Virus record (IMG/VR): IMGVR_UViG_3300001765_000035 | Location: 16,012-80,011 of that record | Length of the DNA: 64,000 bases | Strand: one strand, 5' to 3' | Source of the DNA: a virus | Lineage: Duplodnaviria; Heunggongvirae; Uroviricota; Caudoviricetes | Part shown: positions 10,630-58,775 of the stretch, piece by piece | Layout of the letters: the number at the start of each line of letters is the position of its first letter | How positions within the stretch are numbered: position 1 is the first letter of the stretch | Position numbers and translations under genes: made by a program | The notes under the pieces: generated by a model | Told to the model about the DNA's origin: nothing | What the model saw: the letters and a program-made list of their open reading frames with translations, nothing else | The model's database searches: none

Positions 10630-10704
10630 GCGTAGTACCAAGATTCGAACTTGGATATCCACCTTTATCAGTGGTGATGCTTTAACCAATTAAGCTATAC
10701 TACG
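10630..10704 (-). tRNA. tRNA, anticodon read as GAU (Ile)
   Basis: Minus-strand cloverleaf folded by hand: 7-bp acceptor cgtagta/tactacg, D-stem gctt/aagc, T-arm ccaag-ttcgaat-cttgg, anticodon loop cTGATAa; anticodon stem has one mismatch. Confidence 0.5.
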
Positions 10705-11932: not shown

Positions 11933-12681
11933 TTCTTTAATTGCATTGATTTAAACAATAAGTAGTTTAGTTCAGGATTTGATCTTGATAGCAAAATTGT
12001 ATCTGCAATAATTTCTAGTACATTTTCAATAGCTTCATAGTCTTCTTTACCTATTACTTTTGTTACTTTAAAGAGTCTTACACCCATAGTTTTTGTAGGT
12101 CTTACGACGTACACTAAACGTATCTTGTCAATCTCAATACCTTCTTTTTGTAACATCCAAGCATAAGCCATAAGCTGTATGTAGTAGTTCCAAGGAATCT
12201 TTTCTGAATTTGGTTTTATAGATACGTTTTTGTAATCTACTATAATAGTATTTGTTCTATTATCAAATGTACCAGCTACATAAACTCCGTCTTTTACTTC
12301 GTGATACATACTTCGTTCTACTTCAGTAGGTTTGTTAAGTTTAATATACTCATTGATAAGTGTTGAAGCCATGTCCGGGTATAGTTCACGTATTTCTTTA
12401 ACATTTACATCTGTATTAAACATATGTTTTGTAAGATAACCTTCTACTAAATCTCTACTAGTCTCTTCGCCTTTTGCGTATAGCTCTGCTAGTCCGTGTA
12501 CAATAGAACCTAATACAGATGCTGTATTACCTTTGAATTGTGTTTCTCCTAGTACTTGATCCTTATACCATATGATAGGTAGTTCAAAGAACTTACTAAT
12601 TGATGATGGTGATATCTTAAAGATACAGTCTTCAGGCAATGGTACTTTGACGTGGTCAAATATTGTTGAGGTTTTGCTCAT
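11926..12681 (-). CDS. hypothetical protein; possible PD-(D/E)XK-type nuclease
   Basis: 251 aa; VDYK-containing segment; genomic context only, weak. Confidence 0.45.
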   Translation of the reverse strand: MSKTSTIFDHVKVPLPEDCIFKISPSSISKFFELPIIWYKDQVLGETQFKGNTASVLGSIVHGLAELYAKGEETSRDLVEGYLTKHMFNTDVNVKEIRELYPDMASTLINEYIKLNKPTEVERSMYHEVKDGVYVAGTFDNRTNTIIVDYKNVSIKPNSEKIPWNYYIQLMAYAWMLQKEGIEIDKIRLVYVVRPTKTMGVRLFKVTKVIGKEDYEAIENVLEIIADTILLSRSNPELNYLLFKSMQLKNC

Positions 12682-13174
12682 TTCGATCCTTTCTTTCTTG
12701 TATGATTTTGTTTATTTCCTGACGATCTATTGGAGTATAATTAGTATTTTCCAATGATACGTTGAAGTATCGATCATCAGGTAATGTTTGTGCGTGTACA
12801 TGGCCATGTATGTTTATTTTTCCACGAAGTTCTTCTGGATGGATAGGTGCATGTGATAGCCAAGCCTTCTTTTTTGAAGTTAATGCATATATTCTATCGA
12901 ATACTCCAAAGAAATCTTCTAATCGTAAGAAGTCTGTATCGTGGTTACCTACTACTAGTATTTTATAGCCTGGTAGTTCTTGTATGATAGGTAGATAGTC
13001 TTTATGAAAAACTATATCACCATGAAAATATACAGTATCTCTACGTGTAATAGTTTTCATGTAGTTTTCAATAATAGTATTATCATGCTCTTCGATCGTA
13101 GTAAAGTCTTCACGATATTTTAATATATTTTTATGACCGAAATGCCAATCGGCTGTGTGAAATACTTTAGACAT
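12656..13174 (-). CDS. calcineurin-like metallophosphoesterase
   Basis: ADWHFGH, GDIVFH, GNHD, GHVH metal-ligand motifs in canonical order. Confidence 0.7.
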   Translation of the reverse strand: MSKVFHTADWHFGHKNILKYREDFTTIEEHDNTIIENYMKTITRRDTVYFHGDIVFHKDYLPIIQELPGYKILVVGNHDTDFLRLEDFFGVFDRIYALTSKKKAWLSHAPIHPEELRGKINIHGHVHAQTLPDDRYFNVSLENTNYTPIDRQEINKIIQERKDRNEQNLNNI

Positions 13175-13824: not shown

Positions 13825-13982
13825 GTATTTTCCTTTTTTGTATTAGGGCAATAGTCCTCACAAGTACCTGTAAGTTCTACAAACGTATAGAGGTCTTGTA
13901 TTAAACAAAAACCTTTGTCTAATCGTATACCATTTATATCCATAGTTTCATAGTATATGCAATTTTTGCATACTTCTTTCAT
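13821..13982 (-). CDS. small Cys-rich protein (53 aa, CxxC..C..C..CxxxC)
   Basis: Hand-translated MKEVCKNCIYYETMDINGIRLDKGFCLIQDLYTFVELTGTCEDYCPNTKKENT; ATGA overlaps on both ends (with polymerase stop and with next gene start). Confidence 0.5.
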   Translation of the reverse strand: MKEVCKNCIYYETMDINGIRLDKGFCLIQDLYTFVELTGTCEDYCPNTKKENT

Positions 13983-15808
13983 GCAATCCCTTTTAACATT
14001 TCTTTTATTTCTTCTATAGTAGCTTTTTGACTTAGTTGTTGTAAACTAGACCAATCCATTCCTATTTCACCAGTAGCTTCATTCTTTACGATTTGATTAT
14101 CTATAAAGTCTGTAGCCATAATAGATGTTATATTATCGTTTAGCCACTTAATAACTTCTGAATCACGTTTTACTATAAAGTAAATAGAGTCGTATATTGT
14201 AGATGTTACTTGTATTTTATCAGACCATCCTTTCTCATCAATGAGAGTATGTATCTTATTAATAGCTAATGCTGTTAGTATAGACCAGAACTGGCATGTT
14301 GCATTATTAAGTGTTCGAATATCCTTATCCGGATTATCTGTACTTATATAGAAGCCCATACCTAAATGTATTCTACGATTTTGTTCAGCTGTAGTTAAAA
14401 CATAGTTTTCTCTATAGTGAGTTATGCCCGGATATAGCATATAGTGGTAATTTTCAAAGATTGTTGTAGCTTCTCCTAGGGAGATCTTTAAAGACTTAGC
14501 CACTTTAGGTGGATAGGCACCGTAGCTTAGACCGAATGTAGCAGGCTTACCTTTTTGTCTGATAGCTTTTAGTTCTTTATGCCCTTCTTCAACAAGTCTG
14601 AAAAATTCCTTAACATCTGTAGTTGTATCTCCAGTGATAGGCATATACTGTGCTATCTCATCTTTAAAATACCCATAAGCATTTAAGCAATGGCCATCTA
14701 GATTTTCTAGGAATACATTACATTTATTTGTGTCTTTAGTTAGTGATGCTATTACACGGTCTTCTAATGCTGAGTAGTCTATTGCATATACTATATAATC
14801 TTCTGGAGCAATGAAGCATCGTTTGATCGGTTTAGCATAGATAGAACCTGTAGAAGGTGCATTAAGCATGTTTGGACTATTAGATGTATATCTACCTGAT
14901 TTTGCTCCAAGTAGCTTATATTGACCGTATAGACGTCCATCAATAGTATACTTATAGAATGCGTTGATAAAATTGTTACGTACAATAGCTGCAAATGAAT
15001 GATCAATAAATGCTTGATAAAGTTCAAGTAATATAGGATCAGTCTCTGTGCGTTGTAATTCTTCGATAGGTTCTCTTCCCCAAGACGCTTCACCGGTATC
15101 TTTAGAAAATTCTATAGGATCTATACCCATATACTCAAAGAACTCACGTTTTTGTGTAGATGATCCCGGATTAAACGGTTTCATAATATTGTTAAAACTA
15201 ATGTCTGTTACTTGATCATGATATGATTTATTCCAGATAATAACCTTATGTTCTGCAAGACGTTGCATAGCAAGCATAGCAGTAGGTTCTGTAGGTTTAA
15301 TGCCTTTATTTAAAAGACGTTTAATCTCATGGTGTTCAATAGCAAATGGTTTAACATCTCTGACTGACCATTTAGGTACACCAGGAAGTATTTCTTCTAA
15401 AGGTGTAATTACATCATACATGTCTTCGGCATGTTGTTCCATAAATATAAGCATGTAAAAACTACGGTGTGTCATATTTGAAGCATCAAATTCTTTTAGA
15501 TAGTATGCCGTATCTCTCATTTTAGATTCGATTTCTGCTTTAAGTTCAGCAGCTACTAAAGGAAATTTCTGTTCAAGAAATGCTTTTACGTACGTATTTT
15601 GGTTGATAGTTGTTTGTACTTGTTCAAGTATTGTATCTAATTGTTGTTCTAGTTCGTATACTCTATTAAGATCAATCGGTAAACCGTTGTGCATAATTCT
15701 AACAGTATCTTTAACAAGAGGTTTAGCTACATTTTCATAAAACCACCCTAATGGAATTTCATCATTACGAGGTTCTGGTAAAGGTAGTAGATCAATTGGT
15801 GGTATCAT
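13979..15808 (-). CDS. polA: DNA polymerase, family A (polymerase domain only)
   Basis: Motif A IDYSALEDRV and motif B RQKGKPATFGLSYGA (R..K....G..YG); 609 aa, no exonuclease domain in the same ORF. Confidence 0.85.
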   Translation of the reverse strand: MIPPIDLLPLPEPRNDEIPLGWFYENVAKPLVKDTVRIMHNGLPIDLNRVYELEQQLDTILEQVQTTINQNTYVKAFLEQKFPLVAAELKAEIESKMRDTAYYLKEFDASNMTHRSFYMLIFMEQHAEDMYDVITPLEEILPGVPKWSVRDVKPFAIEHHEIKRLLNKGIKPTEPTAMLAMQRLAEHKVIIWNKSYHDQVTDISFNNIMKPFNPGSSTQKREFFEYMGIDPIEFSKDTGEASWGREPIEELQRTETDPILLELYQAFIDHSFAAIVRNNFINAFYKYTIDGRLYGQYKLLGAKSGRYTSNSPNMLNAPSTGSIYAKPIKRCFIAPEDYIVYAIDYSALEDRVIASLTKDTNKCNVFLENLDGHCLNAYGYFKDEIAQYMPITGDTTTDVKEFFRLVEEGHKELKAIRQKGKPATFGLSYGAYPPKVAKSLKISLGEATTIFENYHYMLYPGITHYRENYVLTTAEQNRRIHLGMGFYISTDNPDKDIRTLNNATCQFWSILTALAINKIHTLIDEKGWSDKIQVTSTIYDSIYFIVKRDSEVIKWLNDNITSIMATDFIDNQIVKNEATGEIGMDWSSLQQLSQKATIEEIKEMLKGIA

Positions 15809-16260
15809 ATATGATCCTTTTCATTAAATAAATTTCTTACTTTCATTAGTAGTTTACCTAAATAGTTACTGCCTATGCCTTTACAAGTTCCCCAGTATGT
15901 ATCGTTCCAATCGTTACGTTCTTCGATATGCTCATCACCCGTAGCTATTAACTTAGAAAGTAATTCTGTGTGTTGAGAAAATTTAGCTAATAATGCTACA
16001 AGCATTACTTCAAGTTTTATATCATCCCAATCAGTTCGTATTAATTTAACATTAAGTCTAGATAACTTCTTAGCTTCTTTAGGAGTACAACTTTCAATTT
16101 GTTTAGCAAGTTGTTTATCTGTAGTAATGAACTTCATTGACATATAGTAGTTTTCTGAACTGCTGTAAGTTATTCCGTCTATTACTATTTTACAGAAATA
16201 CATATTAGATAAATATTGTTTTTCGTTTTTAAATTCGATGTTATCTAAATTAAAACTCAT
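15805..16260 (-). CDS. NADAR-domain (YbiA-like) protein
   Basis: FKNEKQYLSNMYF...IDGITYSSSENYYMSMKF resembles the NADAR/DUF1768 signature. Confidence 0.45.
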   Translation of the reverse strand: MSFNLDNIEFKNEKQYLSNMYFCKIVIDGITYSSSENYYMSMKFITTDKQLAKQIESCTPKEAKKLSRLNVKLIRTDWDDIKLEVMLVALLAKFSQHTELLSKLIATGDEHIEERNDWNDTYWGTCKGIGSNYLGKLLMKVRNLFNEKDHI

Positions 16261-16940
16261 GCAGATACTTCTGCATCATACTTAAGTTCTGTAAGTGTTG
16301 ATTGTATTTCTTCCCATAAAGCAAATGTAGCGCATGAATCAATTGCAGCATATTTAATCAAACCTTCATCAAACATGTTGTCTAAATTGAAGTTTTCGGC
16401 AGATACCGCCCAATCTCCATACTTATAACCCATTAGATGTTTAAGACCTACTTTAGCTTCCAGTATATTTACATGATTTAACATAGTCTTTGAGAGTACT
16501 TCTGTGTCCTCATAATTTAAAGGAAATTTACCTGTATGATATAGGATATGTTTACCATCAAAGGATAGATTATGCCATATTTGTTTACGTGTAGTATTAG
16601 CTAACCACTTAAGTACTAGCATACGATGATGATCGCTAGGTAATACAGCTACAAATGCATCTGTAGGACTCCAGGCTATAGAGAAGTGTGTGACATAGGT
16701 TAATGAAGGGTGTGATAAACCTGTAGATTCTATATATTGTCGTATCTGACGTTTATCTTCACGATCAATATCTTCATCATGCTCTTTTAAATATTCTTTC
16801 ATGATTTCTTTTTCAGAATCAGTCCATTTAGATGCTGTTTCAAAATCACATGCAACTATATCAGGCATACTATTTAGTGTTTGCATGATATTATAAAGGT
16901 TACTTGAATAAGTATGTGTTATAGGTATTACGAATTGCAT
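16257..16940 (-). CDS. DEDDy 3'-5' exonuclease (separately encoded proofreading domain)
   Basis: Exo I ACDFETAS and Exo III YAAIDS motifs; 227 aa. Confidence 0.7.
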   Translation of the reverse strand: MQFVIPITHTYSSNLYNIMQTLNSMPDIVACDFETASKWTDSEKEIMKEYLKEHDEDIDREDKRQIRQYIESTGLSHPSLTYVTHFSIAWSPTDAFVAVLPSDHHRMLVLKWLANTTRKQIWHNLSFDGKHILYHTGKFPLNYEDTEVLSKTMLNHVNILEAKVGLKHLMGYKYGDWAVSAENFNLDNMFDEGLIKYAAIDSCATFALWEEIQSTLTELKYDAEVSA

Positions 16941-17777: not shown

Positions 17778-18505
17778 AGCAATCCCTTTCTGTAGCTACT
17801 AATATACTCATGCATAACAATGTTATCTAGAGTTTCATAGTCTACTGGTTGTTGTTCGTATGTAAGTTTCTTTTCTTCGTAAATAGCGTCAAGACGTTTT
17901 ATGTAATCGTTTTTAAGTAAACCTGCTGCTTCGATAGGTAAAGAACCTCGTTTAATAGCAATAAGCCTTTCTCGTTCGTTTCCTTCGTAAGCAACAACAT
18001 TTTCACCTGATTCTAATACATCTACAAGACGTATGATGTGATGTAGTTGCTTAGGATCATATCCGTATTTTTCTACTATTGAAGCTCTACTTGGGTAAAG
18101 TTTACTAAAAGCATGTACTTTTTCCATAGTCATACCTTTTAAAGCAGAAGGATTCACTTTATAGTTTTTGAACATATCAAGTGATTTACCTATTTTATAC
18201 TTTGTTTGACACACTTCAATCCATTGAGGATTACCTTTAGCGACAATTTCTGCAAAAGTATATATGTTATGACATGTAATCTCGCCTGTAGGAAAGGTGT
18301 ACTTATATGATTCATTCTTACGAAGATCTGCAAGTGTAGGTATAATAATAGCATTTGCATCTATATCTGATTCATCATCATCTAGATTGTAATTCTGAGA
18401 GCCTTTAAGCATAACAGCGTATACTGTATGCCCCTGTGACTCTAGATGTTTTCGATAATCATGAAGAGTATCTATAATTGTTCGATATTTTTCTGTTTTA
18501 TTCAT
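17774..18505 (-). CDS. Pol-beta-superfamily nucleotidyltransferase
   Basis: GSQNYNLDDDESDIDA matches the GS...DxD NTase motif; 243 aa. Confidence 0.5.
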   Translation of the reverse strand: MNKTEKYRTIIDTLHDYRKHLESQGHTVYAVMLKGSQNYNLDDDESDIDANAIIIPTLADLRKNESYKYTFPTGEITCHNIYTFAEIVAKGNPQWIEVCQTKYKIGKSLDMFKNYKVNPSALKGMTMEKVHAFSKLYPSRASIVEKYGYDPKQLHHIIRLVDVLESGENVVAYEGNERERLIAIKRGSLPIEAAGLLKNDYIKRLDAIYEEKKLTYEQQPVDYETLDNIVMHEYISSYRKGLL

Positions 18506-29473: not shown

Positions 29474-30055
29474 TTATTTCCAGCCCAATGATTTTAGTCT
29501 ATGAAATACTCTTGCATCGAGTAAGTGTTTATTAGCTTCGAGATCTTGTCTGATATCTCTAGCATTAGCGTTAATTTGTAGATCAGGATGTTCGTTAAAA
29601 GATGAATGTTTTAATTCAAAACCATTATCTTTAAAGATGTCAGTATACCATGTATTTACGTACTGTTTTCCGTTATACCAAAAATCAGTACGGTCTACTT
29701 CTTTATTTGTATGATATATAACTACATCTTTTTGTAAGTATACTCTTGCTTTTTTAAAGTTAGTAAAATATATATACTTAGAAGTAACGGCTTTCATCAT
29801 TTGGTCATACCACAATGTCCAATTTGTAAAATCGTTTGAAGCTACGTGAATAAATAATTCATCAGGATATATAGAGTCTACAAGATACATACGTTGTTTT
29901 GCTGTTAATGGATTTTTAACAAGATCCCTATCATCATTAGAACTACCGTAAACTATTATAGGTATGCGACCATCTAACATTATCTCATTGATAATAGCTT
30001 GATGTCCCAGATGAAATGGTTGAAATCTGCCCATTATTAAGCCGTATTTTTTCAT
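29474..30055 (-). CDS. nicotinamide-nucleotide adenylyltransferase (NMNAT; cytidylyltransferase-fold)
   Basis: GRFQPFHLGH (HxGH nucleotidyltransferase motif) near the N-terminus; 193 aa; adjacent to NAMPT. Confidence 0.7.
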   Translation of the reverse strand: MKKYGLIMGRFQPFHLGHQAIINEIMLDGRIPIIVYGSSNDDRDLVKNPLTAKQRMYLVDSIYPDELFIHVASNDFTNWTLWYDQMMKAVTSKYIYFTNFKKARVYLQKDVVIYHTNKEVDRTDFWYNGKQYVNTWYTDIFKDNGFELKHSSFNEHPDLQINANARDIRQDLEANKHLLDARVFHRLKSLGWK

Positions 30056-30064
30056 TACTTATCC

Positions 30065-31489
30065 TTAGCGTTTTCGTATAGCGTCTAATGTATCATTTGA
30101 TAATAATTGTCCATTTAAATATACTGGATATAATACTTTTGTGTACTCTGAGTTTGGATCTTCTGCTTGAGCTACCGTTACGGTACAATATTTACCGTTA
30201 CGATTTAGCGCAGTTGTTACTTTACCCTTCTTTGATGTTTTTCCCGGATCTGTAATAGGATCTTTGAATATATCATGATCTACTGTTGTTGTCATATCAC
30301 CACCGAATTCTATTGTAGACCAATGTTCAGTAGTTATAGAACTACATTTAATAGCGAATTTACAAGTATCTCTTGTCATATTTTGCATTAAGTCTCCTCC
30401 TGATCCGAATATAAAGTTTTCAGCAGCGAATATTGGTCTATCGCTGTAGGTATGGGCTGTAAAATGTTGTAATATTTCTTCAATGTTCTCTGGTGTAATA
30501 CCATCACCCCAAAGAATTCTGTAGTTACTTGAAAATAGTTTACCTTGAATTGTTTCATCAAATACACCATTACAATGCATTATTTTTAACATACCTTCAA
30601 GTACTTCAATAGGATTACCACTATCTGGACGTAAAACTAACACCTGATGTGGTCTAGATTCTATAAGTTCTCTTACTTTTCCACCTTTTTTTGTACAAAC
30701 TTTAGTAAAATCATATACGTCATAACTATCTGCTACAAAGCTTAGAATATTACTGTCAGGATGTGCTTCTAGCATAAGAACTACAAACTCATGTTCTTTA
30801 TCTCTGCCATGAGAAGTAGTAGATGAATGTTCGGTAGCGAATACAGAGTATCCAGCAATTTCAGAGTTGTAATACTGTGTAGCATATGATAAACTATTAA
30901 AGTTATCTGTACCTTTGAAACCAGCTGATAAGTGGGCTATACCACCAATAGCTGCAGATTCTACTGAGGTTGCTCCTCGGTCTCCGAAGTTATGGTAAGC
31001 AAATTCAGCCCAGTCAGCTGATCCATATTTTAATAGCATCTGTTTTACATAATGAGACTTTGTAGCTACTGTAGTTGGGTACCATATTTTCATTAGGAGT
31101 GTTTCCAACCATCCAGCTATCCATGGAACTTTAGGATCTGTAGATTCTATTGTCATTAATACATTACCTGTTGGAATAAGACTTCCTTCCGGAACTGCTT
31201 TAATCTTGACGGGTAAGTTTCCATGTAATTCTTCTACAATATATTTCCACCCATTAAAATCAAAAGGTACTCCATGGGCTTCTGCGTAGTTAGATGCGTC
31301 ATAAATTTCTTTATATGTAATAGGTGTTGACAAGTACTTTTTAAGGTAGTATTGTAAACCAAAGAATTTAGTTGCAGGGTATACTCCACCTCTAGCTTCC
31401 ATATAATCATACATAGAAACCATGTTACGAGGGTACTGGGATGCATGACTATATTTATAGGAGTCTGCAAGCATTACTCTATTTTCCAT
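30065..31489 (-). CDS. nadV: nicotinamide phosphoribosyltransferase (NAMPT)
   Basis: 474 aa with AGFKGTDN and other NAMPT-family segments; typical NAMPT length. Confidence 0.8.
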   Translation of the reverse strand: MENRVMLADSYKYSHASQYPRNMVSMYDYMEARGGVYPATKFFGLQYYLKKYLSTPITYKEIYDASNYAEAHGVPFDFNGWKYIVEELHGNLPVKIKAVPEGSLIPTGNVLMTIESTDPKVPWIAGWLETLLMKIWYPTTVATKSHYVKQMLLKYGSADWAEFAYHNFGDRGATSVESAAIGGIAHLSAGFKGTDNFNSLSYATQYYNSEIAGYSVFATEHSSTTSHGRDKEHEFVVLMLEAHPDSNILSFVADSYDVYDFTKVCTKKGGKVRELIESRPHQVLVLRPDSGNPIEVLEGMLKIMHCNGVFDETIQGKLFSSNYRILWGDGITPENIEEILQHFTAHTYSDRPIFAAENFIFGSGGDLMQNMTRDTCKFAIKCSSITTEHWSTIEFGGDMTTTVDHDIFKDPITDPGKTSKKGKVTTALNRNGKYCTVTVAQAEDPNSEYTKVLYPVYLNGQLLSNDTLDAIRKR

Positions 31490-31491
31490 TG

Positions 31492-32031
31492 TTACTCCTT
31501 ATTATAAGCTTCTGCGAAGTATCGCAATAAAATTAATGGTGCCTTCCAGTCTTGAGTAGCTTCTACAACGTCTTGAGGACTTAACCAAGCTACAGTAGAT
31601 CCGAATTCATGTTCTTCAAGAGCTTTATCACCTACAGGTATATCTGTAACATCAACACAGAAGAGGTGGCAGTATTGATTCATCTGTGTACTTACGAGTA
31701 CTTTACCGAGGTAGTGTATATTAGATATATCTACAATATACCCAGATTCTTCCTTTACTTCTTCTTGAACAAGTTCCGGTAATGAAATATCTTTATCTAG
31801 AGAACCGCCAAAGGCAGTAGTTCTAAATTCTTTTTCACCTAATGGTGGTTTAGGTTCGTTAATAAGACCGAATGTATAATCTGTTTTATTGTGTAAAACA
31901 AAAGCTACAGAGTCAACTCCTGCACGCTCACCGTAGATGTAGTAACCATCTGCTTTACGTACTGTAAAGAATGGATCTCCGTTTGCATTTACTTCTTCAC
32001 TTTTCCATAGGATAGGGTGGTTATTTTTCAT
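31492..32031 (-). CDS. Nudix-family hydrolase (degenerate Nudix box), possible ADP-ribose pyrophosphatase
   Basis: QEEVKEESGY matches the REx2EExGU core with R to Q/E substitution; 179 aa; NAD-module context. Confidence 0.45.
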   Translation of the reverse strand: MKNNHPILWKSEEVNANGDPFFTVRKADGYYIYGERAGVDSVAFVLHNKTDYTFGLINEPKPPLGEKEFRTTAFGGSLDKDISLPELVQEEVKEESGYIVDISNIHYLGKVLVSTQMNQYCHLFCVDVTDIPVGDKALEEHEFGSTVAWLSPQDVVEATQDWKAPLILLRYFAEAYNKE

Positions 32032-32251
32032 TGTTTAACTCTTTCGCTAAATTAGCATTTTGTTTAATAAAATCATTACAATCTTTTACCCATACTGTTT
32101 CGTTTTGATAGTTTGAAAGAATATTTGGACATTCTTCTAAACCTTGTTCTGCGTATAAAGCAGTTTTATCAAATACTTCAACGATAGTTAATCCTATTGT
32201 TGTAAATAAACTTAAACTTATCATTAGTATTACAAACCATTTTGCTTCCAT
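32021..32251 (-). CDS. small membrane protein (76 aa, one TM)
   Basis: N-terminal hydrophobic helix. Confidence 0.45.
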   Translation of the reverse strand: MEAKWFVILMISLSLFTTIGLTIVEVFDKTALYAEQGLEECPNILSNYQNETVWVKDCNDFIKQNANLAKELNNEK

Positions 32252-32450: not shown

Positions 32451-33044
32451 TTATTTCATTTCACCAAATAGTTGTCCTATGTAAGGAATAATAGTTTCAA
32501 AACTCACTAACGGTGTATAATCATGTGTCATTAACATTCCATCAATATGTATAACTTCAGCTATTTCTATTCTACCGCAAGAAGATTTACATATTATAGC
32601 ATCCCCTATTCGTGGTGTCCATAGTGCATAGAAATCAAGTAAAACTGTATGAGCCAATAACTCCTTAAGTCTCTTGCTTGTTAATAGTTCTATATGTCTA
32701 GCTCCTCTTGTAGAGGAAATCCAATCACCTACTTTAAATTTAGGTTCATCAGGCTTGATACGATATCTGCAAGGAGGTAAATCCCATCTACAAAGAGATT
32801 TACTCCAATCTAGTCCTGTGTTATCTTGAACTTCTTTACCATCTGCAACGGCTTTACGAAATTCTGCGTATTTATCATCCATAATATATGTAGTATCATC
32901 TTCCCATCTTGCCCCATTTCCATTGCTTAAAGTCCACCACGCTCGGGTTCTAAAATCATTTCCGTTAACCTTAAATAGAACTTTACCTCCGTCTAGCCAA
33001 TAGTCAAAACATTGTTTATTCTCTATAATTACTTCTTTGTTCAT
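32451..33044 (-). CDS. hypothetical protein
   Basis: ORF. Confidence 0.5.
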   Translation of the reverse strand: MNKEVIIENKQCFDYWLDGGKVLFKVNGNDFRTRAWWTLSNGNGARWEDDTTYIMDDKYAEFRKAVADGKEVQDNTGLDWSKSLCRWDLPPCRYRIKPDEPKFKVGDWISSTRGARHIELLTSKRLKELLAHTVLLDFYALWTPRIGDAIICKSSCGRIEIAEVIHIDGMLMTHDYTPLVSFETIIPYIGQLFGEMK

Positions 33045-34944: not shown

Positions 34945-35020
34945 GGTCGCGACACAAGGACTTGAACCTCGGACCTCCTGCTCCTGATGCAGGCGTTCTA
35001 CCAAACTGAACTATGTCGCA
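34945..35020 (-). tRNA. tRNA, anticodon read as CAG
   Basis: D-arm gttc-agtttggta-gaac, anticodon arm cctgc-atCAGga-gcagg, T-arm with TTCAAGT loop, 7-bp acceptor with U1-G72 wobble. Confidence 0.6.
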
Positions 35021-35026
35021 GTTTTA

Positions 35027-35103
35027 GGTCACAATACCAGGAATCGAACCCGGGACCTCCGCTATATGCATGCGGTGCTCTTCCAAGACTGAGCTATATT
35101 GTA
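35027..35103 (-). tRNA. tRNA, anticodon probably CAU
   Basis: D-arm gctc-agtcttggaa-gagc, T-arm ccggg-TTCGATT-cctgg, acceptor 7 bp; anticodon stem ccgc/gcgg with CAT centred in loop. Confidence 0.5.
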
Positions 35104-36334: not shown

Positions 36335-38329
36335 TTAAAATTGAATGTCTAGTACACGAGTTACTGTGCCATGTACTTTTACGATTAGGTTATCTCTCTT
36401 TGTAGATGAGAAACCGATTCCTGATAGTTGATGATCAACTATTTCCGGTTTTGTTTTAGTAGCAAGTACTTCAAATACTTTTCTGTGTTTGTCATATTTA
36501 GCGTTAAGGAATTCGTTGTAGAAACCTCTTGGTTGTTCTTCGTTGATACAGTCTTTAAGCATAAAGAAATAATGCTTATTACCGATTGTCTGATCATCCC
36601 AGTAATTAGGAGATAAAGTTACCATGTTTACAGGTTCAAACTCTTGAGTTTTTATACTCCAAAGATTTTTTGAAGTAGTTGTTGTTGGCATGTAAGGAGT
36701 TATGGTAAACTCATTACCTTTTTTAGTTACAGTAGCTACTTTTGTGTCACGACTACAAGCTCCTTCATGAAAGAATTCATAGATTGTTCCGTTAAACTCA
36801 ATTTCAGCAGAGAAATTACGACCATTCCTGTTAGCGTAGGTGTTAACACTAAACGTATAATCGCCATCAGGCATTTTGTTTATGTCAGTGTAGATGATGT
36901 TTTCAACTGCAGGTTTTCCAGACGGGTGCATAATATCTACATCAAGAGTTCCTGAGAAAGGACTTTGTTTTTTACCGTAGTAGATATGTCCACCTTTAGG
37001 TTCATTGCAATGAGCATCTAGATCGTTTAGGTTATCGTTTTCTGTATTCCACTGAATAGAGAAGCGAAGTACACCTTCAACGTTACCACCAAATGATTTA
37101 ACACGTTCTTTCATAGAATCTGTCACACCACCGGAGTAACTCCATGTGAAGTTGTTGTTCCATTTAAGAATGTTAGGAGCATCAGCATCTGTAGGTGCTA
37201 TTAATGATACGAGGTTGGCTTTGTGACGGTTTTCTACCATTACCTCAAGTGATTGGGTAGTAGGTAGTACTTTCGTGATGAAATCGTCAATAGAGATCTT
37301 TTCTACTTTAGAGAAGTCTTTAGTAGTTTTAACTTCAGTCATAAGAAGATTCTGAAGTGAATCAGCATCTTTCATTACTTTTGCAGTTGTTCTATCTACG
37401 AATAGTACGTTGTTAATGCTGATGTCTTCAGGAGTTGCAAAACGTCTTTTAAGTGCAGACTCGATACCTTCATCCTGAATAGTTTTCATCGCTTGATCAA
37501 TCATACCCTTAGTAATAAGAGCTGTTGGTCTTTTGTAGTTAGTAGGTGCTACTTTTACTTCAAATGATTTTACAGCTACTTCTAAATCTACACCATCTGA
37601 TAAGTCAGTAAGGAGTGTACCGATTACAGAGTTTCTGATACGGAATCCTGGTTTTTTGAAGCTGGTCCAGATAAAGATATCTTTTTCAACATCTGATTGA
37701 AGTTTTAAATAAGCTGTTTGAAGCTGTTTAAAGTTTTGAAGTACAGATAGATGTTCTTCACCACGATAGATTGAGTTTTGTGCAATAAGTTCTAATAGAA
37801 CATCTACAACCCCGGGCTGAATTTCTTCGAAACCACGAGTACCTACCTGAATAGTAGATACAATATCACTAAGTACTGAACCCTCAATACTGATATTTTG
37901 AGTAGGAACTTTAGCATAAAAATGGTTCCAAACTTTTACAGAATTGTCTGCCAATAGTTGTTGAGAATTTTTTGTACCTACTGCACCTTGATGTGTAGAT
38001 AACGGTTGTTTGATACGTTTTGTACGTACAAAAGCAGCAAGAGCACTTGCAACATCTTGATAGAAGTCAGGTGCTATAACATCCCAAATAGATACAATTA
38101 CATCATCGATGATAGCTACAGTATTTCCAACATCTCTGATAAAGTTTTTACAACAGTTGCAAGTATGTTCTGTTCTTTCTTTGTACAGAGGATCAGTACC
38201 TTCAGGGAAAGATGATAGGTATAAAGTGAACAGTTCGTCTTTATCTACGTCTACCTCGAAAAGGTTATGTTGTTTCATGATGTTGAATTGTGCTTCAACA
38301 GCTTCTGAGAACGCTTTAAAATTTGCCAT
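36335..38329 (-). CDS. hypothetical protein (664 aa)
   Basis: Long ORF; several plus-strand shadow ORFs inside rejected. Confidence 0.6.
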   Translation of the reverse strand: MANFKAFSEAVEAQFNIMKQHNLFEVDVDKDELFTLYLSSFPEGTDPLYKERTEHTCNCCKNFIRDVGNTVAIIDDVIVSIWDVIAPDFYQDVASALAAFVRTKRIKQPLSTHQGAVGTKNSQQLLADNSVKVWNHFYAKVPTQNISIEGSVLSDIVSTIQVGTRGFEEIQPGVVDVLLELIAQNSIYRGEEHLSVLQNFKQLQTAYLKLQSDVEKDIFIWTSFKKPGFRIRNSVIGTLLTDLSDGVDLEVAVKSFEVKVAPTNYKRPTALITKGMIDQAMKTIQDEGIESALKRRFATPEDISINNVLFVDRTTAKVMKDADSLQNLLMTEVKTTKDFSKVEKISIDDFITKVLPTTQSLEVMVENRHKANLVSLIAPTDADAPNILKWNNNFTWSYSGGVTDSMKERVKSFGGNVEGVLRFSIQWNTENDNLNDLDAHCNEPKGGHIYYGKKQSPFSGTLDVDIMHPSGKPAVENIIYTDINKMPDGDYTFSVNTYANRNGRNFSAEIEFNGTIYEFFHEGACSRDTKVATVTKKGNEFTITPYMPTTTTSKNLWSIKTQEFEPVNMVTLSPNYWDDQTIGNKHYFFMLKDCINEEQPRGFYNEFLNAKYDKHRKVFEVLATKTKPEIVDHQLSGIGFSSTKRDNLIVKVHGTVTRVLDIQF

Positions 38330-38515: not shown

Positions 38516-39397
38516 TTATTTAGCAGTGTTAACGATAACAGGAACTGAAGATGAATCTCCAGAAGTCATAAGAGTTGTTGGTAATGCACCATTCCATTTG
38601 TCAAGTTCTTTTTCTTTTAGTTCAAGTTGTCTAAGTTCTAATAACTTATCAGTAATACCTTCAGCAGTGATTCTGTTGAAGTCTCTGATTCTTTTTGCTT
38701 CCATCATTCTGATGTTGTATTCAGCTTTAGCAAGTTCTTCACGACCACCTGCTTCGGTAAGCTTGATCTGTACTTTTGCTTCTTCTTCTTCAATAGCCAT
38801 ACGCTTTTGTGTTGCTACTTCAATAGATTTTTCTACTACTTTAGGGTACATTACAGAACCAAGAGTAATATCAGAAATTTCAATAGGTAAACCTTTGAGT
38901 CTTTTAGACACTTCTATAAATAGTTCCGTAGTTATACGACCATAGTTCTTAGGCAGCTCATCTACATTGTATTTGGAGATAATATCTCTTGCTGTATTGT
39001 TTACGATTTGTTGTCCGTAGATTGCGTATACTTCATCAGTAGTTACAATATTATCGTTCATAGGAATATCATTAAAGATAGCGTTTAACACGGAATCACT
39101 TCCGTTAATACGGCCTCTGAATACGATGTCTACAGTTACATCAAGTTTTTCTTTACTGAGTTTAACAACAACAGGTTGTGTATACTTACGAGTAGTAGTT
39201 TGTACAAGGTATAATTTTTCAGGTACGGTAGTAAACATTGTTTCTAACCATACTTTCGATGGTGGGTATAATTCAGGTTGAAAACCTTCTTTTCCAGAGA
39301 TTTTCCCTTTGTTACCTGGTGGTACTTGTTCGTAACATCCAGTCATTAAAGTAGCCAAAGCTACGAGCATAAGTAGTTTAAGTAGTACATTTTTCAT
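38516..39397 (-). CDS. SPFH/Band-7 domain lipoprotein
   Basis: Lipoprotein signal MKNVLLKLLMLVALATLMTGC. Body resembles the stomatin/HflKC core (LDVTVDIVFRGRI ... ISDITLGSVMYPKVVEKSIEVATQKRMAIEEEEAKV). C-terminal coiled coil. Confidence 0.6.
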   Translation of the reverse strand: MKNVLLKLLMLVALATLMTGCYEQVPPGNKGKISGKEGFQPELYPPSKVWLETMFTTVPEKLYLVQTTTRKYTQPVVVKLSKEKLDVTVDIVFRGRINGSDSVLNAIFNDIPMNDNIVTTDEVYAIYGQQIVNNTARDIISKYNVDELPKNYGRITTELFIEVSKRLKGLPIEISDITLGSVMYPKVVEKSIEVATQKRMAIEEEEAKVQIKLTEAGGREELAKAEYNIRMMEAKRIRDFNRITAEGITDKLLELRQLELKEKELDKWNGALPTTLMTSGDSSSVPVIVNTAK

Positions 39398-56125: not shown

Positions 56126-56200
56126 TGCATTGTAGGACAATGGTAGTCCACCTCGCTGTTAACGAGTATGTTGTAGGTTCGAGTCCTACCAATGCAGCCA
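56126..56200 (+). tRNA. tRNA-Asn (GUU)
   Basis: Acceptor tgcattg/caatgca, D ggac/gtcc, anticodon loop cTGTTAa, T-arm gtagg-TTCGAGT-cctac, encoded CCA. Confidence 0.75.
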
Positions 56201-56202
56201 AT

Positions 56203-56278
56203 CTATTCTAAGCTAACTAGGTAGAAGCGCTAGTCTGAAACGCTAGAGGATGTGGTTCGATACCACAAGAATAGGCCA
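56203..56278 (+). tRNA. tRNA-Phe (GAA)
   Basis: Acceptor ctattct/agaatag, anticodon arm ctagt-cTGAAAc-gctag, T-arm tgtgg-TTCGATA-ccaca, CCA. Confidence 0.7.
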
Positions 56279-56287
56279 TATACAAAT

Positions 56288-56363
56288 GATACTGTAACTC
56301 AATGGTTAGAGTACTTCCCTGTCACGGAAGAGGTTGTGGGTTCGAGTCCCATCAGTATCGCCA
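56288..56363 (+). tRNA. tRNA-Asp (GUC)
   Basis: Acceptor gatactg/cagtatc, anticodon arm cttcc-cTGTCAc-ggaag, T-arm gtggg-TTCGAGT-cccat, CCA. Confidence 0.8.
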
Positions 56364-56365
56364 AT

Positions 56366-56441
56366 GCCGGATTAGCTCAATTGGTAGAGCAGTTGTTTTG
56401 TAATCAGAAGGTTAGGAGTTCGAATCTCCTATCTGGCTCCA
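56366..56441 (+). tRNA. tRNA-Thr (UGU)
   Basis: Acceptor gccggat/atctggc, D gctc/gagc, loop tTTGTAa, T-arm aggag-TTCGAAT-ctcct, CCA; anticodon stem weak (G27-A43 as in E. coli Thr). Confidence 0.6.
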
Positions 56442-56444
56442 TTT

Positions 56445-56520
56445 GCTCGGTTGGCGGAACGGCATACGCACTTGTCTTAGGAACAAGCTATTGAAGGTTC
56501 GAATCCTTCACCGAGTACCA
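56445..56520 (+). tRNA. tRNA with anticodon UAG (Leu-decoding) but type-I length
   Basis: Acceptor gctcggt/accgagt (G1-U72), anticodon arm cttgt-cTTAGGa-acaag, T-arm gaagg-TTCGAAT-ccttc, CCA. Confidence 0.55.
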
Positions 56521-56528
56521 AAATTAAT

Positions 56529-56612
56529 GTAGAGTAAAAGTCGATCGGATTCGGCAGCGAGGCTGTAAACCTCGTCTTTAATGGGGTGGTTCGAGTCCAC
56601 TATTCTACACCA
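56529..56612 (+). tRNA. tRNA-Tyr (GUA), type II
   Basis: Anticodon arm cgagg-cTGTAAa-cctcg, long variable arm, T-loop TTCGAGT, acceptor gtagagt/attctac, CCA. Confidence 0.7.
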
Positions 56613-56615
56613 TAT

Positions 56616-56691
56616 ATATGTCTAGCTCAAATGGTAGAGCGACGGATTCCAAACTCGTAGGCTGTGGGTTCGATTCCTACGACATATGCCA
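56616..56691 (+). tRNA. tRNA-Trp (CCA)
   Basis: Acceptor atatgtc/gacatat, D gctc/gagc, loop tTCCAAa, T-arm gtggg-TTCGATT-cctac, CCA. Confidence 0.7.
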
Positions 56692-56698
56692 ACTATAA

Positions 56699-56773
56699 GG
56701 TTCATTCGACTATCGGTAAGGTCATCAGGTTTTCATCCTGAAGAGAGGAGTTCGATTCTCCTATGAACTACCA
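56699..56773 (+). tRNA. tRNA-Glu (UUC)
   Basis: Anticodon arm tcagg-tTTTCAt-cctga, T-arm aggag-TTCGATT-ctcct, CCA. Confidence 0.75.
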
Positions 56774-56783
56774 TAATAATTAT

Positions 56784-56858
56784 TGCGTTGTAGCCAAGTG
56801 GTAAGGCATCGGTCTTTGATACCGACATTCGCAGGTTCGAACCCTGCCAGCGCATCCA
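56784..56858 (+). tRNA. tRNA-Gln (UUG)
   Basis: U1-A72 acceptor tgcgttg/cagcgca, D gcc/ggc, anticodon arm tcggt-cTTTGAt-accga, T-arm gcagg-TTCGAAC-cctgc, CCA. Confidence 0.8.
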
Positions 56859-56863
56859 ATTTA

Positions 56864-56947
56864 GGAGAGTGCCGTCAAGGTGGCAAAGCTGGTTTGAACC
56901 CAGTGGTACGGTTAAACGTAGGATTTCGATTATTCCACTCTCCTCCA
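56864..56947 (+). tRNA. tRNA-Ser (UGA), type II
   Basis: Acceptor ggagagt/actctcc, anticodon arm gctgg-tTTGAAc-ccagt, long variable arm, CCA. Confidence 0.7.
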
Positions 56948-56984
56948 TACTATTACAGTAAAGCTCTTAATGTAGATTTTTACT

Positions 56985-57061
56985 GTGGCAGTAGCCCAAT
57001 GGTTAGAGGCGGTAGGTTGTGAACCTACTTGTTGCGAGTTCGAGTCTCGTCTGTCACCCCA
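56985..57061 (+). tRNA. tRNA-His (GUG)
   Basis: Anticodon arm gtagg-tTGTGAa-cctac, T-arm gcgag-TTCGAGT-ctcgt, acceptor gtggcag/ctgtcac, C73, CCA. Confidence 0.7.
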
Positions 57062-57065
57062 TACT

Positions 57066-57156
57066 GGAAAATAAAACTAATAGGTGTTAGTGTCTCCCTG
57101 CTAAGGAGTTCGTGGGATTCCCGTCTCATACGGTTCGATACCGTTGTTTTCCTCCA
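57066..57156 (+). tRNA. tRNA-Ser (GCU), type II (91 nt)
   Basis: Acceptor ggaaaat/gttttcc, anticodon arm ctcc-cTGCTAa-ggag, long variable stem-loop (ggg att ccc), T-loop TTCGATA, CCA. Confidence 0.65.
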
Positions 57157-58154: not shown

Positions 58155-58775
58155 ATGGTAATAGTTTGCATATCCGATACACACGAAAAGTTAATAGAAG
58201 ATATTCCTGATGGTGATATACTAATACACGCTGGAGACTTTACTATAAGTAGGAATTCAATCAATGCTGCATATGCACTTAATGACTGGTTTAAAACACT
58301 TCCTCATAAACATAAGATACTAGTACCTGGTAACCATGATTGGTGCTTCGTAGATGATGAAGTATTCGCTAGAGAAATATTTACAGAGGCCATAGTGTTA
58401 ATCAATGAAGAAATTATTATTGAGGGTGTAAAATTTTACGGTACTCCTGATCAACCTATATTCTATAACTGGGCTTTTAATAAAACTACAGAAGAGTTAG
58501 TTAAATCTTTTGATAACATTCCTGAAGATACTGCTGTACTTATTACCCATACACCACCATTCGGAATACTAGACGTAAGTTCACATAGTAATAAACATGT
58601 AGGTTCTGGAGTATTGTTAAATAAGGTATTAGAAGTAAAGCCTAAGTTTCATATATTTGGACATATACACGAAGGTTATGGTGTATTAACCGATAAAGAA
58701 ACTACATATATAAATGCTTCATTGTTAGATGATAGATATAGACAAGTCAATAAGGCTATAACTATAGAAGTGTAG
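58155..58775 (+). CDS. calcineurin-like metallophosphoesterase
   Basis: DTHE, GDF, GNHD, HTPP, GHIHEG motifs in order. Confidence 0.65.
   Translation: MVIVCISDTHEKLIEDIPDGDILIHAGDFTISRNSINAAYALNDWFKTLPHKHKILVPGNHDWCFVDDEVFAREIFTEAIVLINEEIIIEGVKFYGTPDQPIFYNWAFNKTTEELVKSFDNIPEDTAVLITHTPPFGILDVSSHSNKHVGSGVLLNKVLEVKPKFHIFGHIHEGYGVLTDKETTYINASLLDDRYRQVNKAITIEV

Follow-up and report, generated by a model that had tools for sequence, protein, structure and literature searches.

A 64,000-nucleotide stretch of DNA from a virus of the class Caudoviricetes (positions 16,012 to 80,011 of IMG/VR record IMGVR_UViG_3300001765_000035; hereafter the window) encodes an operon of three genes, for a nicotinamide phosphoribosyltransferase (NAMPT/NadV), a nicotinamide mononucleotide (NMN) adenylyltransferase (NMNAT) and a Nudix hydrolase putatively of the ADP-ribose (ADPR) type, which, judging from homology, probably rebuilds NAD+ from nicotinamide in the infected cell. 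NAMPT is predicted, on strong homology, to convert nicotinamide and phosphoribosyl pyrophosphate (PRPP) to NMN and pyrophosphate (PPi), and NMNAT is likewise predicted from homology to convert NMN and ATP to NAD+ and PPi. The Nudix hydrolase would act on ADP-ribose, which is released alongside nicotinamide when NAD+ is cleaved, and split it into AMP and ribose-5-phosphate; ADP-ribose would thereby be cleared and ribose-5-phosphate could be passed via the host PRPP synthetase into the PRPP used by NAMPT. For the Nudix protein, this ADP-ribose step is the most likely one in view of the modelled fold, the retained catalytic glutamates, the gene context and the analogy with NadM. The payoff would be a NAD+ pool kept up for replication and nucleotide metabolism, also where host NADase defences of the TIR, SIR2, SEFIR and RES types deplete NAD+; the anti-defence role is inferred by analogy with experiments on the genes of phage KVP40. 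In kind the module is NARP2-like, but it is split into separate genes and its Nudix protein is not orthologous to the Nudix domain of NadM. The core biology is already established, and what is new is the split layout, an uncharacterised NAD+-linked Nudix family and parallel fusions of NMNAT with Nudix domains.

All three genes are encoded on the minus strand. The Nudix gene (31492..32031, 179 aa) comes first in transcription order, followed by the NAMPT gene (30065..31489, 474 aa) and by the gene for a NadM/archaeal-type NMNAT domain without a fused Nudix domain (29474..30055, 193 aa); the coordinates and lengths assigned to these genes in an earlier sequence-only reading of this DNA match the list of open reading frames (ORFs) exactly. 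That reading also had the Nudix gene follow the NAMPT/NMNAT pair immediately, and the genes are indeed adjacent in plus-strand coordinates, but the Nudix gene is transcribed first, upstream of NAMPT. Only 2 nt separate the Nudix stop codon from the ATG of NAMPT, and 9 nt the NAMPT stop codon from the NMNAT start, which is placed at M1 and backed by a conserved MKKYG N-terminus. Furthermore, an 11-nt overlap joins the Nudix start to the end of a 76-aa ORF lying upstream, and an AAGGAG motif lies just 5' of the NAMPT ATG. Because of the shared strand, the short gaps, this overlap and the AAGGAG motif, the simplest reading is that the three genes form one co-transcribed operon, probably with translational coupling. 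A consensus scan found no convincing promoter or terminator site at the operon boundaries, with promoter hits around the operon (36 versus 41.1 in shuffled sequence) and terminator hits (9 versus 3.8) near chance. The 76-aa ORF (32021..32251, minus strand) has a hydrophobic N-terminus and is matched by homologues ahead of the Nudix gene in L018 and L040; beyond it, an ORF of 197 aa (32451..33044, minus strand) recurs in L008, L012 and L026. Both ORFs may be accessory parts of the cassette.

On sequence grounds, the family assignment of the 474-aa protein as NAMPT is unambiguous. It matches NCBIfam NF006629 over residues 2-474 (453.7 bits, cutoff 405), the Pfam families NAMPT_N (90.2 bits, cutoff 25) and NAPRTase (104.6 bits, cutoff 20.8) and PHROG 448 (E 3.7e-113); its PDB matches include the Xanthomonas NAMPT 7yqo (8e-102) and human NAMPT (3e-87). 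The motifs FGDRG, GTDN, ATEHS, RPDSG, GDGI and FGSGG...RDT.KFA.KCS align with 7yqo; the active-site residues among them include those corresponding to human H247 (the autophosphorylated histidine) and D219 (the aspartate selecting nicotinamide). The nearest isolate homologue is encoded by Xanthomonas phage LucasX (43.5% identity), in which the NAMPT gene directly follows a gene for a NadM~Nudix fusion. Top-ranking isolate homologues share 35-43% identity with it (E 1e-67 to 4e-103) and include those of LucasX, XacN1, MD18 and Vibrio phage PVA8 (247 kb); NadM was found in LucasX, XacN1 and MD18, and PVA8 is presumably KVP40-like. Proteins of Staphylococcus (~140 kb), Escherichia/Salmonella (~88 kb) and Pseudomonas (~93 kb) phages, which we take to be of the NARP1 type, share 24-30% identity with the NAMPT of the window (E 1e-16 to 1e-39). 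Since the closest relatives reside in NadM-carrying phages and a Pfam scan of the 77 longer ORFs of the window (7 + 10 + 10 proteins singly and 48 as a batch) turned up no Prs/Adps-like family, we treat the protein as a putative PRPP-dependent Nampt.

The 193-aa protein is clearly predicted, by both its sequence and its structural model, to be a NadM/archaeal-type NMN adenylyltransferase domain. Residues 9-18 read GRFQPFHLGH and contain the HxGH motif (H15-L-G-H18) that the sequence-only reading had noted in an NMNAT gene adjacent to NAMPT, and the profiles agree with that pairing. The Pfam family CTP_transf_like is matched at 35.1 bits (cutoff 21), and single-sequence matches cover the N-terminal part only. 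Three NCBIfam equivalogs are matched below their cutoffs (NF002243, 44.6 versus 127 bits; TIGR01527, 43.7 versus 181; NF003786, 37.2 versus 397). PDB searches with the single sequence retrieved 2qjo (7.7e-8) and 1f9a (6.6e-7), and the NMNAT family profile (A2) matched NMNATs only, with 2qjo again best (1.7e-13). Among the 51 metagenomic relatives of this protein, 27 were aligned, in which G9, R10, Q12, H15, G17, H18, P49, D75, W82, A165 and R169 are invariant; the family also shows an NP(L/F)T turn and a C-terminal xA(T/R)xIR motif. D75 and W82 align with D80 and W87 of the Methanothermobacter thermautotrophicus NMNAT (PDB 1ej2/1hyb), which are residues of the NMN site. The second nucleotide-binding motif, at residues 161-169, reads I-N-A-N-A-R-D-I-R, and relatives carry ADATNLR or DISATQIR; the first serine of ISxTxxR is not kept. 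An hhalign comparison pairs this motif with the isATxIR of phage NadM, within an alignment to six phage NadM NMNAT domains that spans 161 columns (probability 99.8%, E 2.4e-29). The AlphaFold model of the protein has a mean confidence (pLDDT) of 94.0, and Foldseek ranks 1-20 against the PDB are all NMNATs (among them 1hyb, 4yp7, 1f9a, 2qjo, 2qjt and 1lw7), with template modelling (TM) scores up to 0.75 on the target. By Pfam, the protein ends after the NMNAT domain, with no Nudix domain in its 193 residues. The sequence-only reading had considered that this gene might turn out to encode a generic cytidylyltransferase with a different substrate. By sequence, by profile and by fold, however, its top matches are without exception NMN adenylyltransferases of the NadM/archaeal type, and its gene is syntenic with NAMPT in many independent contigs; we therefore reject a generic cytidylyltransferase.

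The 179-aa protein is marginal as a Nudix protein by its single sequence (Pfam NUDIX 22.0 bits, cutoff 21.1), and it has no PHROG and no NCBIfam match. With family and structural evidence the prediction of a true Nudix fold is secure: 26 of 32 relatives match Pfam NUDIX at E<=0.01 (best 1e-10), and the AlphaFold model (pLDDT 94.9, predicted TM score 0.89) retrieved 427 PDB matches at E<=1e-3 with Foldseek, the 50 listed being Nudix enzymes throughout. The nearest folds are those of Escherichia coli NudK and the Thermus thermophilus ADP-ribose pyrophosphatase (ADPRase; TM 0.75-0.79), followed by NudF, NUDT5 and NUDT14. In addition, the family profile matches NUDT5 and ADPRases in the PDB at E about 1e-3, and among viral structures the closest neighbour, at 19% identity, is a phage 'ADP-ribose pyrophosphatase'. 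The protein lacks an extra domain for an NrtR-like regulator role and is probably an ADP-ribose/NDP-sugar pyrophosphatase, as predicted from sequence and model. A tblastn search against 50,697 phage records gave nothing at E<=1e-3, and a search of 185,579 species genomes with one peptide pattern, thus of limited sensitivity, gave a single family match, which lies on a 33-kb contig of a metagenome-assembled genome. In metagenomic data, 103 relatives were recovered, and a HMMER scan of 1.84 billion representative proteins yielded 122 clusters at E<=1e-30, a number that rises to 286 at E<=1e-10. This variant-box Nudix family was found almost wholly in metagenomic sequence, and it is uncharacterised.

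The Nudix box was called degenerate in the sequence-only reading, in agreement with our alignment. It reads G76-x5-I82-x7-E90-E91-V92-K-E94-E95-S-G97-Y98 and keeps seven of the nine positions of GX5EX7REUXEEXGU, the first glutamate and the arginine being the two that are missing. These features extend to the family, whose box consensus is GGS[LIF]D-x10-[ED]EVxEExG[YF]: E91 and E95 are present in 103/103 relatives, E94 and G76 in 102/103 and G97 in 101/103, the canonical arginine position (E90) holds Glu or Asp in 76/103, and the Gx5E position (I82) is K, I, L or V. An invariant D79 and position 81, in most cases D, N or E, are each candidates to compensate for what the box has lost. Since the metal-binding glutamates E91, E94 and E95 are retained, the sequence argues for a working hydrolase. 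The family is further marked by the invariant motifs ERxGxDSVAF, AFGGSxD, VSTQMNQ and DWK. The profile alignment with NUDT5 covers the N-terminal strand, the (K/R)PP motif and the Nudix helix, and places K61-P-P of the family opposite R-P-P of NUDT5. This R-P-P stretch, together with an arginine possibly matching the invariant R36, presumably binds the phosphates of ADP-ribose in NUDT5. T115, which lies within VSTQMNQ and is a threonine in 97/103 relatives, aligns with the position of the ADPRase-signature proline, opposite DPG of NUDT5; this proline is said, after Dunn et al. 1999, to lie about 15-16 residues past the Nudix box.

Two Nudix clades, that of NadM and that of T4 NudE, are said to hold most phage Nudix proteins (PMC9503650). 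An origin of the 179-aa protein as a split-off NadM Nudix domain was rejected: hhalign against one NatV gave a probability of 5.8%, a six-sequence profile gave generic similarity only (probability 89%, E 2e-6), the hidden Markov model of the window's Nudix family (A1) scored NadM proteins at <=7.7 bits, and the boxes differ. A NudE-like identity was also rejected, as only 55 columns around the box align (probability 56%). By these comparisons the Nudix protein is not a KVP40 NadM-type domain that was split off, and the NMNAT, well below the equivalog cutoffs, is a divergent member; both points amend the sequence-only reading.

The gene neighbourhood of the Nudix family was surveyed in related contigs and 24 IMG/VR loci, which collapse at 90% Nudix identity to 27 non-redundant loci. 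NAMPT is encoded on the same strand and within 8 kb of the Nudix gene in 18/27 loci, and NAMPT and NMNAT are both present in 16/27; as a rough estimate, random placement in phages of this size would link NAMPT in a few per cent of cases. Most loci, including L008, L011 and L012, share the order Nudix-NAMPT-NMNAT found in the window, and L009 has the same order broken by small genes and a NAD-kinase-like gene. The order is NMNAT-Nudix-NAMPT in L024, L028 and L031, and in L034 NAMPT is followed by a gene for an NMNAT~Nudix fusion. Flanking genes are mostly unrelated between loci, and since the linkage persists through rearrangement into three gene orders in total, the three genes appear to be functionally coupled.

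Fused proteins provide the strongest evidence that the Nudix and NAD+ genes work together. The 313-aa fusion of L034 (L034:7518-8459) combines an NMNAT domain (residues 5-120) with a variant-box Nudix domain (154-311), both above the Pfam threshold. Among the best 150 representatives of the Nudix family, seven further, diverged NMNAT~Nudix fusions with the variant box were identified (P0158, P0166, P0168, P0186, P0276, P0280 and P0290), and the gene for P0280 clusters with genes for NAMPT, a NAD kinase, a metallophosphoesterase and an AAA_28 protein. As fusions occur with the NadM Nudix as well as with the variant-box Nudix, phage NMNAT has become joined to Nudix domains on no fewer than two occasions, the domains belonging to two distinct families; the variant-box fusion is a parallel to NadM and not its descendant. 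Related modules also encode NAD-kinase-like proteins directly after NMNAT (L009:7198-7914, L016:10396-11046, L025, L026 and L048:884-1687), and in a 393-aa ORF (L033:14975-16156) the kinase is apparently fused to NMNAT. The presence of NAD kinase in these modules points to an extension of the pathway to NADP+ in some phages; no NAD kinase was found in the window.

Metallophosphoesterase genes recur near the NAD+ module in some relatives. The two in the window (12656..13174 and 58155..58775) lie far from the operon and were not counted as parts of it.

The module most closely resembles the KVP40 NadV/NatV system (NARP2). Pairs of NAMPT and NMNAT in KVP40-type phages, and their proposed use against NAD+-depleting defences, had been brought up in the sequence-only reading, and the literature on NARP2 agrees: KVP40 Nampt together with Nmnat replenishes NAD+ and defeats Thoeris, DSR and SIR2-HerA (bioRxiv 10.1101/2024.02.11.579819), and NARP2 also cancels aRES (bioRxiv 10.64898/2026.01.28.702374). 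Both systems comprise the same two core reactions by NAMPT and NadM-type NMNAT families, with the genes together in a large phage and a Nudix activity tied to the pathway, and the NMNAT of the window is homologous over its full length to the NMNAT domain of phage NadM. As in NARP2, a Nampt-clade gene adjoins an NMNAT gene, and no Prs/Adps Pfam family occurs in the scanned ORFs of the window. The layout differs, however, as KVP40 NatV is an NMNAT~Nudix protein of ~340 aa, whereas in the window the NMNAT stands alone with 193 aa and the Nudix protein, which is from another family and has an atypical box, is encoded by a separate gene before NAMPT.

Both bacterial and phage NadM consist of an NMNAT fused to a Nudix domain (PMC9503650). 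The bacterial proteins from Synechocystis (slr0787, 2qjo) and Francisella (2qjt) are the best solved sequence matches to the NMNAT of the window and among its top folds, and they show an equivalent functional pairing of NMNAT with an ADPR-type Nudix. In the window the two proteins are unfused, though, and the C-terminal half of the NMNAT is longer and divergent, with an insert around residues 95-135. Furthermore, 2qjo and 2qjt are absent from the 60 PDB sequences listed (of 69 matched) for the Nudix profile, and the Nudix partner is not orthologous to that of NadM. The nearest folds to the Nudix protein, those of NudK and of the ADPRases (T. thermophilus Ndx4 1v8l/3x0j, NudF 1ga7 and NUDT5; TM <=0.79 on the target), have in common with it the catalytic glutamates EUxEE, but identity is only 10-18%, and the box arginine, first glutamate and signature proline are missing from the window protein.

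NARP1 (Adps and Namat), NARP1-AP (with an additional Macro phosphatase) and NARP3 (PnuC and NadR) likewise rebuild NAD+ in the infected cell, and NARP1-AP provides a precedent for an accessory ADPR-processing enzyme on a core NAD+ reconstitution operon (10.64898/2026.01.28.702374; PMC13464706). In contrast to these pathways, the predicted chemistry in the window is canonical PRPP-dependent salvage, and no Adps/Prs, PnuC, NadR, Macro or ART family was found by Pfam in the longer ORFs of the window.

Three alternative explanations bear on the enzymes and on the reason for their retention. The NAMPT homologue could be of the Namat type of NARP1 and transfer nicotinamide onto ADPR-pyrophosphate, in which case the module would not be PRPP-dependent salvage; Namat and Nampt are homologous and both labelled NAMPT in phage records, and KVP40 Nampt uses ADPR-pyrophosphate weakly in vitro (bioRxiv 10.1101/2024.02.11.579819). 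We consider this very improbable, as Prs/Adps-like Pfam families are absent both from the scanned ORFs of the window and from the precomputed Pfam families of called genes in related contigs, an NMNAT gene adjoins NAMPT although NARP1 needs none, and the protein matches human and bacterial NAMPT at 3e-87 to 8e-102. Also, its best isolate homologues include those of NadM phages, whereas the presumed NARP1-type phages encode more distant proteins. For the Nudix protein, an unlikely but more serious alternative is that it does not recycle ADP-ribose and instead destroys or regulates another NDP-X molecule, with cyclic ADPR isomers, ADPR-1''-phosphate, NAD(H) (as a brake on overproduction) and NAD-capped RNA as candidate targets. 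The atypical box is kept family-wide, the classical ADPRase proline is replaced by the near-invariant threonine in VSTQMNQ, the family stands apart from the NudE and NadM Nudix clades, and the top fold match is NudK, a GDP-mannose hydrolase and not an ADPRase, which ranks equally high as the ADPRases. The Nudix domain of KVP40 NatV is reportedly active on NAD+, NADH and ADP-ribose (Lee et al., J Bacteriol 2017). The nearest structures and profile matches are nonetheless mostly ADP-ribose/ADP-sugar pyrophosphatases, K61-P-P lies opposite R-P-P of NUDT5, and the repeated fusion to NMNAT mirrors the NMNAT/ADPRase architecture of NadM, all of which favour an enzyme of the ADP-ribose type. A third explanation, compatible with NAD+ rebuilding and at odds with our reading only over the selective reason, is an auxiliary metabolic module that supplies NAD(P)+ for replication and nucleotide synthesis regardless of host immunity; candidate consumers would be ThyX and ribonucleotide reduction, via NADPH, and NAD+-dependent enzymes. 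The operon resides in a region with ribonucleotide reductase (RNR) subunits, ThyX, dCMP deaminase, DNA polymerase A and a helicase, ThyX adjoins the module in L011, and the six loci with a NAD-kinase-like gene after or fused to NMNAT (L009, L016, L025, L026, L033 and L048) point to an NADP+ output that would be unneeded merely to undo NAD+ depletion. KVP40 NARP2 moreover lifts NAD+ also where no defence system is present (bioRxiv 10.1101/2024.02.11.579819). Against this, the same enzyme pair beats NAD+-depleting defences experimentally (bioRxiv 10.1101/2024.02.11.579819; 10.64898/2026.01.28.702374), the window contains no NAD kinase, and a conserved ADP-ribose-type Nudix would be easiest to explain if NAD+ is cleaved to ADP-ribose; on balance, we give a purely metabolic purpose somewhat less than an even chance.

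We thus favour an operon that rebuilds NAD+ from nicotinamide with an ADP-ribose-type Nudix as the third enzyme, a reading against which several observations weigh. The NMNAT scores so far under the NCBIfam equivalog cutoffs that it should be regarded as a divergent relative and not as an equivalog, its second nucleotide-binding motif is NANARDIR and not ISxTxxR, and its sequence does not tell a preference for NMN from one for nicotinic acid mononucleotide. The Nudix box lacks the canonical arginine and first glutamate, T115 stands in place of the classical ADPRase proline, and the substrate could be NAD(H), ADPR-1''-phosphate, cyclic ADPR isomers, another NDP-sugar or capped RNA. In 9/27 Nudix loci there is no NAMPT within 8 kb. 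The anti-defence role is an analogy only, and a metabolic role fits equally well, given a setting among RNR, ThyX, dCMP deaminase and polymerase genes and the NAD kinase of related modules.

NAD+ depletion is among the commonest bacterial anti-phage strategies, and the phage pathways that respond to it (NARP1, NARP1-AP, NARP2 and NARP3) are now being catalogued. Our analysis indicates that uncultured phages have a modular version of the NARP2 scheme with unfused enzymes, which searches seeded with the fused KVP40 NatV could under-detect. It also brings to light a large Nudix family whose repeated association with NAMPT and NMNAT, through operon position and through fusion, makes it a candidate for an under-studied third activity, and raises the question of whether NARP2 draws on PRPP only or also recycles ADP-ribose. 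The joining of two unrelated Nudix families to phage NMNAT suggests, as a tentative proposal that we hold to be less likely than not, that ADP-ribose hydrolysis is an integral third step of NARP2-type pathways, in which both halves of cleaved NAD+ would be recycled. In a bolder version, the atypical box would mark a shift of specificity to ADPR-1''-phosphate, formed by RES enzymes, or to cyclic ADPR immune signals, and the Nudix protein would then be a counter-defence enzyme in its own right.

The sequence-only reading had also counted a NADAR-domain gene of the window, together with the Nudix gene, as ADP-ribose-processing capacity. This gene (15805..16260, minus strand, 151 aa) does encode a NADAR domain (Pfam NADAR 96.3 bits, cutoff 35.1, residues 12-143), and with it all four assignments of that reading, to NAMPT, NMNAT, Nudix and NADAR, have held in profile searches and in structure or context too; a part in salvage is less likely for it, however. 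It lies 13 kb from the operon, between a 3'-5' exonuclease gene (16257..16940, minus strand) and a polymerase gene (13979..15808, minus strand) of a split DNA polymerase A, and overlaps both neighbours at stop/start codons. The protein also weakly matches Pfam Phage_30_3. Phage NADARs such as T4 gp30.3/AdfN strip ADP-ribose from DNA and counter DarTG1 (PMC11825919; PMC11543638). Because of its placement between polymerase genes and the weak match to the T4 gp30.3 (AdfN) family, the NADAR protein is, by analogy, more likely a DNA de-ADP-ribosylase (anti-DarT) linked to replication than an enzyme of NAD+ salvage. Other phages are, however, reported to have NADAR genes in the vicinity of NadM/NadV (PMC9503650), and XacN1 has one NADAR gene (DUF1768) near NadM.

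The window is AT-rich (G+C about 34%), with genes densely packed on the same strand, and the coding strand flips near 52-53 kb together with the GC skew. It contains 14 tRNA genes, 11 of them in a tight cluster (56126..57156, plus strand) and the others at 10630..10704 and 34945..35103 (minus strand). Pfam also identified the large and small subunits of RNR, ThyX, dCMP deaminase, the split DNA polymerase A, a UvrD-like helicase and PIN-PhoH. The tRNA set and the gene content are consistent with part of a large phage genome. The locus recurs in identical form on a Joint Genome Institute (JGI) metagenome contig, and a megablast search with the 3.5-kb region gave no match in 50,697 phage records, so that this phage has no close relative among those sequenced.

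Several further genes of the window and of related loci are recorded here as side observations. A reverse transcriptase of 249 aa (22975..23724, minus strand; Pfam RVT_1, 72.6 bits) is encoded among replication genes; a search around it (20500..28500) for template/variable-type direct repeats of >=40 bp was negative, and it is therefore unlike that of a diversity-generating retroelement. Large ORFs of 621-767 aa without a Pfam match are located at 26140..28128, 18505..20808, 36335..38329 (minus strand) and 40..1905 (plus strand); the one of 662 aa, near the operon, has no PHROG match either. An SPFH/Band-7 (prohibitin-like) gene lies at 38516..39397 (minus strand), with an NfeD-type match elsewhere in the window; in Rhizobium phage B1VFA (L043), a 'prohibitin family protein' is encoded just downstream of NadM and NAMPT, which may be coincidence. 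Among the related loci, the 716-aa ORF L034:3604-5754 appears by eye to be a replicative helicase with a possible intein, and a possible intein is likewise indicated in the family-B DNA polymerase L019:11566-13788, where the Pfam intein match reaches 25.4 bits, below the cutoff of 35.8.

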